Positions 1,877-49,849 are shown, counted from the stretch's first letter. The stretch: 64,000 nucleotides of DNA from a virus (IMGVR_UViG_2879462666_000008:1116-65115), one strand, 5' to 3'. Notes: generated by a model not told the origin, from the sequence alone. Numbers and translations: made by a program.

Positions 1877-2154
1877 GTTAACACCCTCCATATCACACCG
1901 ACCCAAAACGTTAGAAACATGCGCCCCATCCATTTACCGTTATTGCCGACGATCGGCGAGACCATCATTCCGAGCGCACATACGATAATACCGAACGTTA
2001 TAATTTCCGGAGAGTAAGCGTTTAATGCCGCGATGATTCCGGTCGCTGTCTCACCGAGAACGCGCGATATAAGTCCGGTTATTGTCTCCGTTATATTATC
2101 GATTACGCCACCGCCAATGTCCGGAAGTGCTGCGCCATTTATACGTATTATTAT
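1873..2154 (-). CDS. Small membrane protein with two C-terminal TM segments (pilin-like); probable ATA start
   Basis: Hydrophobic segments IITFGIIVCALGMMV and MFLTFWVGVIW; AGGAGG-8nt-ATA. Confidence 0.65.
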   Translation of the reverse strand: MIIRINGAALPDIGGGVIDNITETITGLISRVLGETATGIIAALNAYSPEIITFGIIVCALGMMVSPIVGNNGKWMGRMFLTFWVGVIWRVLT

Positions 2155-2166
2155 TGCGCCCACCTC

Positions 2167-2535
2167 CTATAACATCCGCAGCCAATTACGGATATCGACC
2201 GCATGGCGCACGATAATGTAACCGATGCTGCCGCCCATTAGAAACTCGATCGCCTTCGTACGGTTGCCGAACATCCATGTAATGCCAGCATATACGATGA
2301 TGCCGACGCAGAGCCAATCGGCGATCCCGAGTACCGTTGAGAACACCGTTACCCACGTTGCTGACCCGGCCGCTACTGACGATGCGAATACGGTTTTAGG
2401 AATCAACGCGAGGTGAACGGTGGCGGCCGTTTTAGTTAACGGAGTCGGTACGTGAGGTGCGGTTATCTTTGGCGTGATAATACCGGATTGGAATGCGCCC
2501 CATTCGAGCGCAACGGTTTTAGTCATACGTATCAT
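2167..2535 (-). CDS. TrbC/VirB2 pilin-like membrane protein
   Basis: Leader ending in VFA, then two TM helices (IADWLCVGIIVYAGITWMFG-NRTKA-IEFLMGGSIGYIIV), a VirB2-like pattern. Confidence 0.6.
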   Translation of the reverse strand: MIRMTKTVALEWGAFQSGIITPKITAPHVPTPLTKTAATVHLALIPKTVFASSVAAGSATWVTVFSTVLGIADWLCVGIIVYAGITWMFGNRTKAIEFLMGGSIGYIIVRHAVDIRNWLRML

Positions 2536-2589
2536 TCCTTTCGGATTGGATATACTAGGCGTAAATTTAACGCAAAGGAGTTGTTACTA

Positions 2590-2652
2590 ATGGCGTTTGT
2601 TATCGGATTAATCGTCGGCGGCACTATCGGAGCGATCACGCTTCTGTTTTAA
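2590..2652 (+). CDS. 20-aa hydrophobic peptide MAFVIGLIVGGTIGAITLLF
   Basis: AAGGAG RBS at 2575-2580, ATG 2590. Confidence 0.45.
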   Translation: MAFVIGLIVGGTIGAITLLF

Positions 2653-47380: not shown

Positions 47381-47403
47381 ATATCCGCATCACCTCCGTT
47401 AAT

Positions 47404-49305
47404 TTAGGCGGCCTGTTCCGTATCGAAGCGCTGTTCTACCGGTACAATTAGTTTAACGCCCTCTTTATCGACGGCGTGGTACTCTCCGTCCGCCGCGCGT
47501 AGTCCGAGCAGATCCGTGCCTACGTCCTCAATCTGCGCGGTAACTATTTTCGTGTTTCCGCAGTATTTCGCGGAGGTAACGACATCACCGTGCTTAAACT
47601 CGCCGACCTTACGCCCGAGCTTCGCCCATTTAGCGATTTCCTGCGTTTCCTTCTCGATAGCGGCGATCTCCTCTGCGGACAGCTTAACGAGTTGGTCCGG
47701 CAGCGCAAATCCGTAGCTAGCAGCGTCTTCAATTCCGATTCTCTTCGATTCCCATTGCGTAGATTTAGGATTAGCGACGGTGTAAATTCCGCCGTCAGTA
47801 AACCCGTAAAGTCCGGAATTGTTTGCGCCGCTAATCAACCGCACCTTATCGCCCTTTGCGAAAGCATCGCGCGGGTCTTTCGGCGCAACCGCCGCGTTAT
47901 ACTCAGCCTCCGTAATCTGGCGCAGGGCGTCCGCGTTGCAGTATCCCCGGTTACCGCTAGTTTTCGTCACGACAAGCTTATAACGGCCGTTGAATCCGTC
48001 TGATACTACGTTTACGTAATCCCCGGTAGAGAATCCGCCGAGTGCCTGCGATTTACTTACGTCGACGATCTGCGCAAATCCTCCGTCAGCGAACGGACCG
48101 ACCGCGATTTTACGCTGAGCTTCCGCCCGGGCCGCGCTTACTTCTTCGGCGGTTGCTGGCGTGAGCTGATCCGGCGTAAACCATCCGGCGCGAGTACCGT
48201 CGAGTTTCTTCCCGCGATATGGACGGTTCGAGTGGTCCGTTTCCGTAAGCTCTACGATAAGGCCGACGATTGCCGCGCTAGCATAGCTCATATCAAACGC
48301 AAGCACCTTCGCGTAGTCTCCGATTTTCAAGCGCACAGGTTCCGCCGGCTTACGTTGCGCAAGGAACTCCGTTTCGGTTGCGGGCTCTACGTTGTACGTT
48401 ACGAGCCAGTTTCCGCGCTTTCCGTCCACAGTCTCAGCGCGGAATTGTTGGCCGCCGTACCTCGCGTTATCTTTAGTTTCTGTGATCATAACTACGCTGC
48501 CCTCCGTATAATCGTGACATACGGAATTGCCCGTAACCTTAACGTAGTCACCCGCGCTGAAACGTTTAGGCTTCGCTTTAACTTGCGTGTTGACCGGTTC
48601 GAGTACGACGTATTCGCGGAGATAGGCGCTATTGCGTTCATTAACGGTATCCCTGAAATAAACGTTGCCCTCTTCGTCTATTTCAATTACCGTAAACTCA
48701 TCGCCCATAACGTAGTCAATCGCAGCTACCGGATTAACGATCTTAATACGCTCACCTACGGCGGCCTTACGTTTGACTTCGCGATATGAAGCCGCCGGAG
48801 TCTCTACGCTGACCTTTTCGTACACGTCGAACACGATACCACTCGCGCCCATATCGTAATCATCTCCGTCATCATCCGTAATCTGCGCGCCACCAGCGAA
48901 GTCAATCTCGTTGACAAGGTACGCTTTACCTGAGGTAAGGTAGCTACGCGGAGCCTCCGCAAATACGATAACGTCACCTTCGCGGGCCGAGCGGTCGACC
49001 TTGCGATACTGTGCGGATTCGAACGTAAGATCAGCGGGAGCATCGGCGGTGCCTGCGGAGACTACTGGCGCGTAGACTTCGTGTTTCCAGCACGAAAGCT
49101 GCCGTGAGTCATCCGCACCATCCGCGAAGGAGTAGTCGCCGAGCACGTTATAGAACGCGCCTGCTTCGATATCTTCGCCGCTTTCCGTAACCTTAACGAT
49201 ATCGCCCGCCTGCGCCTTGCGGTCAACTTTGCGGAATTCTACGTTACTGCCGTCGATCTCTACCATTACGTTTACAGCCGGAATTACTACGTTTAATTTC
49301 GTCAT
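47404..49305 (-). CDS. Multi-KOW/SH3-like repeat protein
   Basis: About 8 modules with a (K/A)xGDxVxV-type core. Confidence 0.75.
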   Translation of the reverse strand: MTKLNVVIPAVNVMVEIDGSNVEFRKVDRKAQAGDIVKVTESGEDIEAGAFYNVLGDYSFADGADDSRQLSCWKHEVYAPVVSAGTADAPADLTFESAQYRKVDRSAREGDVIVFAEAPRSYLTSGKAYLVNEIDFAGGAQITDDDGDDYDMGASGIVFDVYEKVSVETPAASYREVKRKAAVGERIKIVNPVAAIDYVMGDEFTVIEIDEEGNVYFRDTVNERNSAYLREYVVLEPVNTQVKAKPKRFSAGDYVKVTGNSVCHDYTEGSVVMITETKDNARYGGQQFRAETVDGKRGNWLVTYNVEPATETEFLAQRKPAEPVRLKIGDYAKVLAFDMSYASAAIVGLIVELTETDHSNRPYRGKKLDGTRAGWFTPDQLTPATAEEVSAARAEAQRKIAVGPFADGGFAQIVDVSKSQALGGFSTGDYVNVVSDGFNGRYKLVVTKTSGNRGYCNADALRQITEAEYNAAVAPKDPRDAFAKGDKVRLISGANNSGLYGFTDGGIYTVANPKSTQWESKRIGIEDAASYGFALPDQLVKLSAEEIAAIEKETQEIAKWAKLGRKVGEFKHGDVVTSAKYCGNTKIVTAQIEDVGTDLLGLRAADGEYHAVDKEGVKLIVPVEQRFDTEQAA

Positions 49306-49387
49306 TTATACGGGTCTCCTTCGTTGGGACTGAGCCTTCGGCGCTTACCGTTAGCTCCTCCGCCCCGATAATGCGTTAATCTTACGT

Positions 49388-49849
49388 TTAGACAGCGGTC
49401 GGTAGTGGTAATTCCTCCGTGATCACAGCGGCCGAAACCGTATAGATATCGCGGTTAAGCGCTAGAGGCAGCTCAACCCAACGCTCAGCTGCACGTGCTT
49501 CTCCGCACCAGTACTCCGTAAGGCAGCGGTTCTCGAACATATACACGCGAGGCACTTCGCCCTCGATCACCCATACGCCAATAATGTAATCAGCGTCGGC
49601 TAGGTCGTAGATAGTCCCGTTGCCTTTCTTCGCGTAGACTACGAGGTCGCCGCCGCGATCCATACGCTGCCTAATCGTCTTCACTTGAATCCGCGCATAG
49701 TCTCCGCTTACGGGATCTTGCGCCAGGACATCGTACGCTTCGTCTGTCTCCGATTGGTGCACAGTCCATCCGTTCGCCAATAACGCTAATCTTGCGGCGA
49801 GCTCCGAATACTTACCTACGACTTCCGAAATATGTGCCGTCTGAACCAC
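49388..49849 (-). CDS. PD-(D/E)XK endonuclease (group I intron-associated type)
   Basis: G..SEL.A...LL..GW.V...YD...RIQVKT; start uncertain (GTG 49849 or ACG 49840). Confidence 0.75.
   Translation of the reverse strand: MVQTAHISEVVGKYSELAARLALLANGWTVHQSETDEAYDVLAQDPVSGDYARIQVKTIRQRMDRGGDLVVYAKKGNGTIYDLADADYIIGVWVIEGEVPRVYMFENRCLTEYWCGEARAAERWVELPLALNRDIYTVSAAVITEELPLPTAV

Follow-up and report, generated by a model that had tools for sequence, protein, structure and literature searches.

Near-cognate codons in the window

The DNA analysed here, termed the window, covers 64,000 bases of a virus record that consists of one contig of 65,115 bases (IMGVR_UViG_2879462666_000008, positions 1116-65115). 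It carries a siphophage late module (terL, portal, capsid, tail and a 1,263-codon tape measure) and a replication and recombination module encoding a DnaB-like helicase, a Toprim primase, a family A polymerase, a sliding-clamp-like protein, two DNA methylases, a dUTPase, a dNMP kinase, RuvC, sigma-like factors and an integrase. Nearly all genes are on the minus strand. The subject of this analysis is a set of these genes, among them those for the large terminase (TerL), a RuvC-like resolvase and a Cas4-like exonuclease, that appear to begin at near-cognate codons (ATC, ATT or ATA, together ATH) behind strong Shine-Dalgarno (SD) sequences. A preliminary description of the sequence had listed eight such sites. 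All were found to be present, on the minus strand and each in frame with a long open reading frame (ORF). They are listed by window position, with SD region and codon.

27031, minus strand: terL, GGAAGGGAGGCGATATCT-ATC
42408, minus strand: ruvC, GGAAGGAGGCGGAAGCG-ATC
43861, minus strand: Cas4-like exonuclease gene, TAAGGAGGCGGTCATA-ATT
34371, minus strand: homing-endonuclease-like gene, AAAAGGGGCGGTAAAA-ATA
37361, minus strand: HNH-repeat gene, TCGGAGGTTTTAGG-ATA
2154, minus strand: membrane gene, TAGGAGGTGGGCGCA-ATA
36502, minus strand: dNMP kinase gene, AAAGGGGTTGATTATT-CTG
49840, minus strand: PD-(D/E)XK gene, GAGAGGACGTGGTTCAG-ACG

At six sites, a GGAGG-type SD precedes an in-frame ATC, ATT or ATA. 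The gap between the GGAGG core and the codon is 7-8 nt, as first reported, and lies in the functional range; 234 of 279 GGAGG-to-ATG/GTG/TTG pairs in this phage group were spaced at 7-10 nt. SD duplex energies at the near-cognate sites were -8.6 to -14.8 kcal/mol at this spacing, with a mean of -12.5, compared with -11.1 for 73 canonical genes (one-sided Mann-Whitney p = 0.08). The gene set was compiled from coding-potential calls and SD scoring. In this census, most genes of the window had an ATG, GTG or TTG with an SD of -8 kcal/mol or stronger, while the canonical candidates of the flagged genes reached -1.5 to -6.5 kcal/mol, against -8.6 to -14.8 for the near-cognate codon. The first canonical codons of terL, ruvC, the exonuclease gene and the homing-endonuclease-like gene had weak SDs (-1.5 to -3.9 kcal/mol), and in none of these four genes would an in-frame canonical start leave the conserved N-terminus intact. 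Conserved N-terminal sequence extends 25-27 codons upstream of the first ATG, GTG or TTG in terL, ruvC and the exonuclease gene. The membrane and HNH-repeat genes have a canonical codon 3 and 9 codons upstream, respectively, without a usable SD.

The coding strand of the window contains 154 copies of GGAGG, and because the motif is so frequent a null model was needed. In-frame ATH with a strong SD (-10.5 kcal/mol or stronger) amounted to 9/145 in 5′ zones, defined as the sequence before the first good canonical start, and to 0/1004 inside genes (Fisher p = 6.5e-9). The comparison was extended to seven related genomes, with phage phi18-2 omitted as a near-duplicate. Here, GGAGG was followed by an in-frame ATH at 7-9 nt in 26 of 127 5′-zone cores that had no canonical start and in 11 of 175 cores deep in genes (p = 2.9e-4, for counts that take in homologous genes of related genomes and are not fully independent). 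The commonest codon was ATC, with 15 cases. Exact spacings were counted, as a wide SD window also catches second codons (ACG, GCA). A chance origin of the arrangement of SD and ATH is excluded.

The terL, ruvC and exonuclease genes

25253..27031, minus strand: terL (large terminase), 592 codons from ATC 27031-27029
27032..27048, minus strand: terL initiation region, SD GGGAGG (GGAGG 27044-27040) and 8-nt spacer CGATATCT
41851..42408, minus strand: RuvC-like resolvase gene, 185 codons from ATC 42408-42406
42409..42424, minus strand: ruvC SD AAGGAGG (GGAGG 42421-42417) and 8-nt spacer, -14.8 kcal/mol
42845..43861, minus strand: Cas4-like/RecB-family PD-(D/E)XK exonuclease gene, 338 codons from ATT 43861-43859
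43862..43877, minus strand: exonuclease SD AAGGAGG (GGAGG 43874-43870) and 8-nt spacer, -11.7 kcal/mol

TerL was identified by PF17289 (Terminase_6C, E = 1.2e-12) and PHROG 38 (E = 2e-94). Its homologues align from residue 1, with residues 1-27 aligned in all relatives. The first canonical codon, TTG 26950, occurs 27 codons in and has no SD; the SD duplex upstream of the ATC has an energy of -14.5 kcal/mol.

RuvC was matched by Pfam PF02075 (E = 4.3e-10, residues 16-168 against profile positions 2-146) and by PHROG 159 (E = 3e-25). The catalytic LGLD was said to lie upstream of the first ATG, GTG or TTG, and it does: it occupies residues 16-19, and the first canonical codon, GTG 42327, is residue 28, 27 codons in. 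A canonical start would thus remove the catalytic Asp. The ruvC SD sits within the 3′ end of an upstream 70-codon gene (42374-42586). Twelve RuvC relatives from IMG/VR were compared, including the genomes G001, G002 and G004 introduced below. Six had ATC, two had adjacent ATT/CTG and three had CTG, with SDs of -12 kcal/mol or stronger in 11 of the 12; the relative L121 had no clear start candidate. Among the canonical codons preceding the catalytic motif in these 12, the SD was never better than -6.0 kcal/mol.

The exonuclease gave a match to PHROG 1706 and none in Pfam, NCBIfam or PDB sequence searches. D155, E173-x-K175 and Q200-xxx-Y204 were invariant in 11 sequences; these residues correspond to the D...E-x-K catalytic motif and the QxxxY motif of the Cas4/RecB family. 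Foldseek, used on a structure model with a mean predicted local distance difference test (pLDDT) score of only 61.5, placed Cas4 SSO0001 (4ic1, E = 1.5e-6) and type I-C Cas4 (8d3l) on top, with further matches to AddB/AdnB, RecE and lambda Exo. A four-cysteine Fe-S cluster is typical of Cas4, and here only C67 and C154 were nearly invariant among the same 11 sequences. From the invariant motif residues and the Foldseek matches, the protein appears to be a Cas4-like, RecB-family PD-(D/E)XK nuclease. Its residues 3-25 (IANQIAQHFTDYLNAWHS) are conserved in relatives and precede the first canonical codon, GTG 43786, which lies 25 codons in (residue 26). The stop codon of the upstream gene, TAA (43877-43875), abuts the exonuclease SD, and in G004 the ATT of the exonuclease gene comes directly after an in-frame TAA. 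In a separate observation, the alignment with a related phage contig from another organism (run X5) runs from 41264 to exactly 43861, the first base of the ATT, with no similarity beyond, so that a module boundary coincides with the start codon.

The ATA genes and two ambiguous starts

33475..34371, minus strand: homing-endonuclease-like gene, 298 codons from ATA 34371-34369
36489..37361, minus strand: HNH_repeat (homing-endonuclease-associated repeat) protein gene, 290 codons from ATA 37361-37359, SD GGAGG 37373-37369
1873..2154, minus strand: small hydrophobic 'membrane' protein gene, 93 codons from ATA 2154-2152
35945..36505, minus strand: dNMP kinase gene (Pfam DNMK, PHROG 139), start ambiguous
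49388..49849, minus strand: PDDEXK_5-like nuclease gene (Pfam below cut-off, PHROG 5018), start ambiguous

The label DUF559 given to the first of these genes was not borne out. Pfam instead identified a DUF4379 zinc finger (E = 8e-21) and a weak DUF2726/Vsr-like C-terminus (DUF2726 below cut-off), and the PHROG matches were to families 559/9084 (HNH or homing endonuclease). Its first canonical codon is ATG 34254, 39 codons in (residue 40). An ATA start is supported by PHROG 5104 (residues 7-107 against profile positions 6-100) and PHROG 12131 (residues 8-95 against 7-84), and by the syntenic Lietuvens ORF50, which aligns from residue 8 and starts at GTG/ATG within one codon. Two points tell against this start: for most other phage homologues the alignment begins only at residues 40-44, and the SD AAAAGGGG is of moderate strength (-8.6 kcal/mol). 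From these alignments, the case for ATA 34371 appears good rather than certain.

In the HNH-repeat gene, the ATA corresponds in alignment to the ATG of Parageobacillus phage NIIg3.2 gp67, and it is from this residue on that homologues are similar; the alternative TTG 37388 overlaps the end of the upstream gene. The product had been described as a repeat endonuclease. The HNH_repeat domain was matched in Pfam; a nuclease domain, however, was not detected in Pfam or PHROG searches. An NCBIfam scan of eight of the proteins gave no useful match. In the membrane gene, the SD TAGGAGGTG (-14.7 kcal/mol) overlaps the upstream stop codon and the alternative GTG 2163 falls inside the SD. The G004 homologue has an ATG behind TTATAGGAGGCGGACGAT at the position of the ATA.

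Neither of the two homing-endonuclease-type genes (33475-34371 and 36489-37361) occurs in the closest relatives, G001, G002 and G004. The former lies directly downstream of a C-5 DNA methylase gene (34673-35935), while Lietuvens ORF50 lies between helicase and primase genes. This absence and the different position in Lietuvens suggest that the two genes are mobile insertions that may also have taken up ATA starts.

The remaining two sites had been put forward as weaker cases. Their codons are present as described, but the start assignment is ambiguous, with rival starts close by. For the dNMP kinase, CTG 36502 and ATT 36505 are both properly spaced from AAAGGGG, TTG 36496 lies at 15 nt, and TTG 36511 is a further candidate. 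CTG 36502 aligns with ATG in G001 and G004, and ATT 36505 with ATG in G002; a start at TTG 36496 would cost only two residues. The PDDEXK_5-like gene could begin at ACG 49840 or at the in-frame GTG 49849, three codons upstream and embedded in the SD-like GAGAGGACGTGG. The position of ACG 49840 is ACG in G002, ATG in G004, 268TH007 and phi18-2, GTG in G003 and TCG in Lietuvens. The GTG three codons upstream, within an SD-like GGA(G/C)CGTGG, is retained in every genome with ACG or TCG (the present phage, G002 and Lietuvens). By this comparison, GTG 49849 would be at least as likely a start as ACG 49840.

For the sites taken together, it is very improbable that the true starts are the next canonical codons (or GTG 49849 and TTG 36496/36511), with SD and ATH associated fortuitously. 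Such starts are plausible for the PD-(D/E)XK gene, given the retained GTG and the non-cognate TCG of Lietuvens, and for the dNMP kinase, where the TTG two codons downstream of the CTG costs so little; the homologues of the homing-endonuclease-like gene that align from residues 40-44, near ATG 34254, also agree with them. In terL, ruvC and the exonuclease gene, however, they would delete conserved or catalytic residues, the canonical codons lack an SD (-1.5 to -3.5 kcal/mol), and strong-SD ATH was absent from gene interiors (0/1004).

Start codons in related phages

The TerL of the window is 55-62% identical to annotated TerLs of Bacillus phages 268TH007 and phi18-2, Sporosarcina phage Lietuvens and Paenibacillus phage Tripp. 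Nearer relatives are IMG/VR records and prophages of Paenibacillus, Cohnella, Fontibacillus, Brevibacillus, Neobacillus and related genera. Related genomes without a phage name are denoted G001 to G005, and individual loci by L numbers. The codons at the homologous position were as follows.

terL: ATC in the present phage, 268TH007, phi18-2 and G002; GTG in Lietuvens; ATG in Tripp and G004; TTG in G003 and G005
ruvC, near-cognate: ATC in the present phage, G001, G002 and L114-L117; CTG in G004, Tripp, L122 and L124
ruvC, canonical: ATG in G003, 268TH007, phi18-2 and Lietuvens; GTG in G005
Exonuclease gene, near-cognate: ATT in the present phage, G001, G002 and G004; ATC in Tripp; ATT/ATA in G003
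Exonuclease gene, canonical: TTG in 268TH007, phi18-2 and G005; ATG in Lietuvens
Portal gene: ATC in G003, 268TH007 and phi18-2; CTG in Tripp; TTG in the present phage; ATG in G002, G004, G005 and Lietuvens

At the aligned position of terL, ruvC and the exonuclease gene, homologues thus had ATG, GTG or TTG or the same near-cognate codon, as in terL of Tripp (ATG) and Lietuvens (GTG) and ruvC of G003 (ATG). The three ATA genes had profile or homologue support, including the ATG of G004 for the membrane gene and that of NIIg3.2 for the HNH-repeat gene. The concern that homologues might lack the N-terminal extensions was not realised: the extensions are kept, which indicates that the near-cognate sites are real starts and not errors or truncations.

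The terL start was examined in larger sets. Among 50 IMG/VR TerLs aligning from residue 1, the codon was ATC in 36, ATT in 1, ATA in 1, ATG in 8, GTG in 3 and TTG in 1 (ATH 38/50); these came from 58 loci, with L103, L105, L106 and L108 (match not from residue 1) and L110-L113 (weak partial matches) left out. Among 32 prophage TerLs from species-representative genomes of Paenibacillus, Cohnella, Brevibacillus, Neobacillus and others, 27 had ATC, 1 ATT, 1 ATG, 2 GTG and 1 TTG (ATH 28/32; 34 loci, with L157, matching from residue 50, and L159, a weak match, left out). With exact duplicates collapsed, the pooled distinct TerLs comprised 57/71 with ATC, ATT or ATA and 14/71 with ATG, GTG or TTG. 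The ATC start is common to TerLs only 34% identical (the present phage and G002). A FastTree phylogeny of 78 TerLs (59 ATH and 19 canonical, with the present phage and seven named or handled relatives added and the truncated L099 left out) required at least 8 state switches by fewest changes. This indicates that the start codon changed repeatedly, with ATC as the prevailing state.

The numbers of flagged genes per genome, all obtained by one pipeline, are listed below. Flags denote candidates, some of them unconvincing, and the three controls are a small sample.

Present phage: 7/82
G002: 7/81
G003: 7/84
G004: 6/88
G001: 4/32
268TH007: 6/87
phi18-2: 5/80
Tripp: 8/78
Lietuvens: 2/89
SPP1 (control): 1/65, doubtful
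Parageobacillus phage NIIg3.2 (control): 0/52
G005, an 88-kb provirus record (control): 2/115, weak

The near-cognate starts had been proposed to be concentrated on nucleases. This holds in the window, where 5 of 6 well-supported near-cognate genes were nuclease-type compared with 2 of about 76 others (Fisher p = 4.5e-6, from classes set post hoc and hand-entered counts, with many genes unannotated), and where the polymerase, primase, helicase, methylases and integrase have canonical starts. It does not hold in the relatives, however, which use the device on the portal gene, as listed above, and on many other non-nuclease genes.

Family A polymerase: ATA in G001, ATC in G003
Toprim primase: ATC in G002, first canonical codon 77 codons later
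PhoH: ATC in G003, Pfam match from residue 6
N6 methylase: ATC in G004
C5 methylase: near-cognate start in relatives
Integrase: ATT in G003
Sigma-like regulator: ATC in G001 and G002
BhlA holin: CTG in G004, Pfam match from residue 3
Minor tail protein: ATA in G004
HTH regulator and 3D-domain protein: near-cognate starts in 268TH007

Several of these genes have ATG starts in the present phage. The genes as a group are better described as encoding proteins required in few copies, and among them nucleases use the device most consistently.

Sequencing or assembly error, or decay of pseudogenes in a defective prophage, had also been considered, and this explanation can be discounted almost entirely. 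Beyond the record being a single uncultivated-type virus contig, no support for it was found. The phage occurs as a separate contig of 65,588 nt in two bacterial sequencing runs from two studies, and both contigs match window positions 27001-47000 (20 kb) without a single difference; one of the two identical runs may be the source of the record, so that at most one is independent. The near-cognate codons are the same in dozens of assemblies obtained independently and from different species, and the ORFs are intact and full length. On the sequences compared, near-cognate starts are a trait of the lineage and not an error.

Interpretation of the near-cognate starts

We consider it probable that these sites are genuine near-cognate initiation codons that act as fixed translational attenuators of few-copy enzymes. 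A strong, optimally spaced SD would place AUC, AUU or AUA (in some relatives CUG) in the 30S P site. The initiator tRNA would pair with two of the three bases, so that initiation would occur, rarely, and the product would begin with formylmethionine (fMet) and not with Ile. In this Paenibacillaceae/Bacillaceae siphophage lineage, nearly every gene carries a consensus SD. Given strong SDs throughout and genes closely arranged in long operons, the choice of start codon could serve as the attenuator. It would hold few-copy, potentially DNA-damaging enzymes at low output from polycistronic transcripts: TerL, the RuvC resolvase, the Cas4-like exonuclease and the homing-endonuclease-like genes in the present phage, to which relatives would add portal, polymerase, primase, methylases and integrase.

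Initiator tRNA can decode AUU, AUC, AUA and CUG at low efficiency; the resulting complexes are rejected by initiation factor IF3, and fMet is the first residue of the product. By analogy with this established knowledge of near-cognate initiation and IF3 discrimination, the yield of the phage genes is probably low, and we infer that low yield is the selected property. The retention of weak codons across deep divergence fits selection for low translation, and the repeated switching between ATH and ATG, GTG or TTG fits quantitative tuning. The earlier idea of a throttle on toxic genes is supported to this extent; its targets, however, would be few-copy proteins and not only nucleases.

Several observations count against simple attenuation by a weak codon. 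The low output of AUH and CUG starts is general knowledge drawn mostly from work on E. coli, and a very strong Firmicutes SD might give more output than assumed. An ad hoc gene caller and ad hoc SD thresholds were used, and part of the flags raised in relatives are doubtful. Three of the six sites, ATT 43861, ATA 2154 and ATA 37361, follow an upstream stop codon at a distance of 13-20 nt, and the ruvC start overlaps the upstream gene; re-initiation instead of de novo initiation is therefore possible. In terL, the third codon position is C in 55 of 57 ATH starts, the spacer CG(A/G)TATCT is conserved, and the second codon is GCA in 42 of 55 ATC starts. These extra features of terL are not predicted by a plain weak-codon model.

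Such features might instead reflect context-dependent initiation, by re-initiation after the upstream gene or, for terL, through an element comprising a hairpin of spacer and start codon and an out-of-frame AUG mini-ORF. We regard this explanation as improbable. The upstream stops and the position of the ruvC start inside the upstream gene are in its favour. In terL, the spacer and ATC-GC can form a 5-bp stem, GCGAU/AUCGC (window 27011-27055, minus strand; positions 377-421 of L056-L109 and L126-L158), with 84% of cells paired in 41 sequences compared with 15-54% for slid controls. The second codon GCA occurs in 1 of 9 ATG-start terL genes, against the 42 of 55 for ATC, and GCG in 6 of the 9. 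GCA-TGG generates an out-of-frame ATG 5 nt after the ATC (window 27017-27026, minus strand). It is present in 42 of 57 ATH homologues, and in 27 of these 42 a stop follows after one further codon, giving a two-codon mini-ORF (ATG-NNN-stop). These GCA and out-of-frame-ATG counts, however, ignore phylogeny, and the mini-ORF features may be by-products of the conserved A-W-[VIT]-[NDS] residues. The stem is short, with no compensatory pairs found in the 41 sequences, and the minimum free energy of the 45-nt region, -7.6 kcal/mol, is a value without a shuffle control. No gene end lies near terL, the nearest upstream ORF ending about 150 nt away, and tight packing is the rule for all genes of the phage. 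Frameshifting from the out-of-frame terL AUG was considered separately and rejected on inspection: re-pairing in the +1 frame is impossible for the P-site codons GAU and GGU, and no such AUG is present in ruvC or the exonuclease gene.

A different alternative, put forward in the preliminary description, is an IF3-responsive switch, in which host IF3 would hold the genes off as a regulon until the IF3-to-ribosome ratio falls or a phage factor relaxes fidelity late in infection. It is consistent with the discrimination of IF3 against AUU, AUC and AUA and with infC autoregulation, both established, and with the affected genes serving replication, recombination and packaging, several of them sharing the device in many genomes. 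An IF3-repressed GTC start has also been reported for Streptomyces sigR (PMC5472188). We nevertheless judge this switch unlikely. The sequence gives no sign that IF3 levels change, the phage has no tRNA genes, and no translation-factor-like domain was present among 30 replication-module proteins scanned. The genes span early/middle replication and late packaging modules, so that it is not obvious what use one shared timing signal would be. These gene families also move freely to ATG, GTG or TTG (at least 8 switches for TerL), which fits tuning better than an obligatory switch. As no tRNA genes were found, a phage-encoded initiator tRNA is ruled out.

More speculatively, the lineage could possess a weak-start regulon, in which packaging and recombination nucleases would be co-controlled through initiation fidelity by host IF3 or a putative phage factor. 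The TerL region, with its invariant AUC, conserved spacer and hairpin and two-codon out-of-frame AUG mini-ORF, would then be a dedicated sensor and not a passive attenuator, and AUC would have been kept across at least 8 host genera because the switch, and not low output alone, is selected. We think it doubtful that such a regulon exists.

Other features of the phage

The 65,588-nt contigs exceed the 65,115-nt record by 473 nt. The excess looks like a terminal repeat, comparable with the 437-bp repeat annotated in Lietuvens. Homologous TerLs of other species are situated within large chromosomal contigs, that is, in prophages. The integrase gene occupies the following position.

63011-64000: integrase gene

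G+C content is 0.42 at window positions 8001-12000 and 0.49-0.54 elsewhere. The gene at 9056-10402, in this low-G+C stretch, has an uncertain start, with a weak SD at GTG 10357 and a strong SD at CTG 10255. On the minus strand at 18079-18830, just upstream of the tape-measure region, a 150-codon ORF (18381-18830) overlaps the one that follows it (18079-18468), whose first 54 codons include no start. The arrangement has the typical look of tail-assembly-chaperone genes with a programmed frameshift.

Relation to known systems and significance

Near-cognate starts are known from E. coli, where infC, encoding IF3, has an AUU start with IF3 autoregulation and pcnB also starts with AUU. As in infC and pcnB, the phage genes have AUU, AUC or AUA behind a functional SD and conserve it in evolution; low initiation is established for the E. 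coli genes and would apply here by inference. The phage device differs in occurring on many unrelated genes of one lineage, where any feedback loop or IF3 dependence would be hypothetical, and in AUC, not AUU, being the dominant codon of TerL and RuvC.

Comparable phage cases have been reported. In Streptococcus thermophilus phage TP-J34, orf28 of the terminase region has an AUU start that was confirmed by resequencing and called 'very unusual' (PMC3952083). Like the present phage, TP-J34 is a Firmicutes siphophage with an AUU-type start, re-verified in sequence, on a packaging-region gene. Unlike the phages described here, it is reported as a single gene, without conservation analysis or a link to other genes. 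SPP1 gene 2 (TerL) has no ribosome-binding site and overlaps gene 1 in AUGA, and TerL translation is kept weak (PMC6316719). In both phages the design of the initiation region would keep TerL translation weak relative to its neighbours; SPP1 does so with a missing SD and a termination-coupled AUG, whereas a strong SD and a weak codon would do so here. The sigR start is likewise non-canonical. That gene is reportedly a cellular stress regulator with experimental IF3 dependence and its start an IF3-sensitive regulatory device; for the phage genes such a role is only proposed. The announcement of the Salmonella phage f18SE genome lists ten AUU starts without evidence (PMC4599075). For Lietuvens, the literature yielded an endolysin paper that has no bearing on start codons. 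A mention of AUU in PMC9503643, considered as a further start codon, belongs to an anti-SD sequence.

Only single reported AUU starts, and no lineage-wide conserved AUC, AUU or CUG starts on terminase, RuvC or exonuclease genes, were found in the literature, in a full-text search that left supplementary start-codon tables, which may be relevant, outside its scope. Near-cognate starts are textbook knowledge; what appears new is their conserved, lineage-wide use on the terminase, RuvC and exonuclease families.

These genes are systematically miscalled, because standard gene callers allow only ATG, GTG and TTG. In GenBank, the TerL of 268TH007 begins at codon 106, 105 codons short (L004:2068-3504, compared with a start at 1753). 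That of its near-twin phi18-2 begins at a TTG 25 codons upstream and is too long (L008:1563-3389, compared with 1638). The Tripp portal is annotated from its first GTG, a codon without an SD that lies 42 codons downstream of a CTG linked to one (L003/L046, 3131 and 3257). A RuvC called from its first canonical codon would be annotated without its catalytic Asp.

A terminase family in which AUC is conserved in about 80% of members would offer a clean natural system for near-cognate initiation in Firmicutes. With it one could ask how a strong SD compensates for proofreading by IF3 and by what means phages adjust the ratios of proteins encoded in one long operon. The near-cognate habit extends to the RuvC and exonuclease families, and the ATC/ATG orthologue pairs would provide ready initiation regions of graded strength for design.

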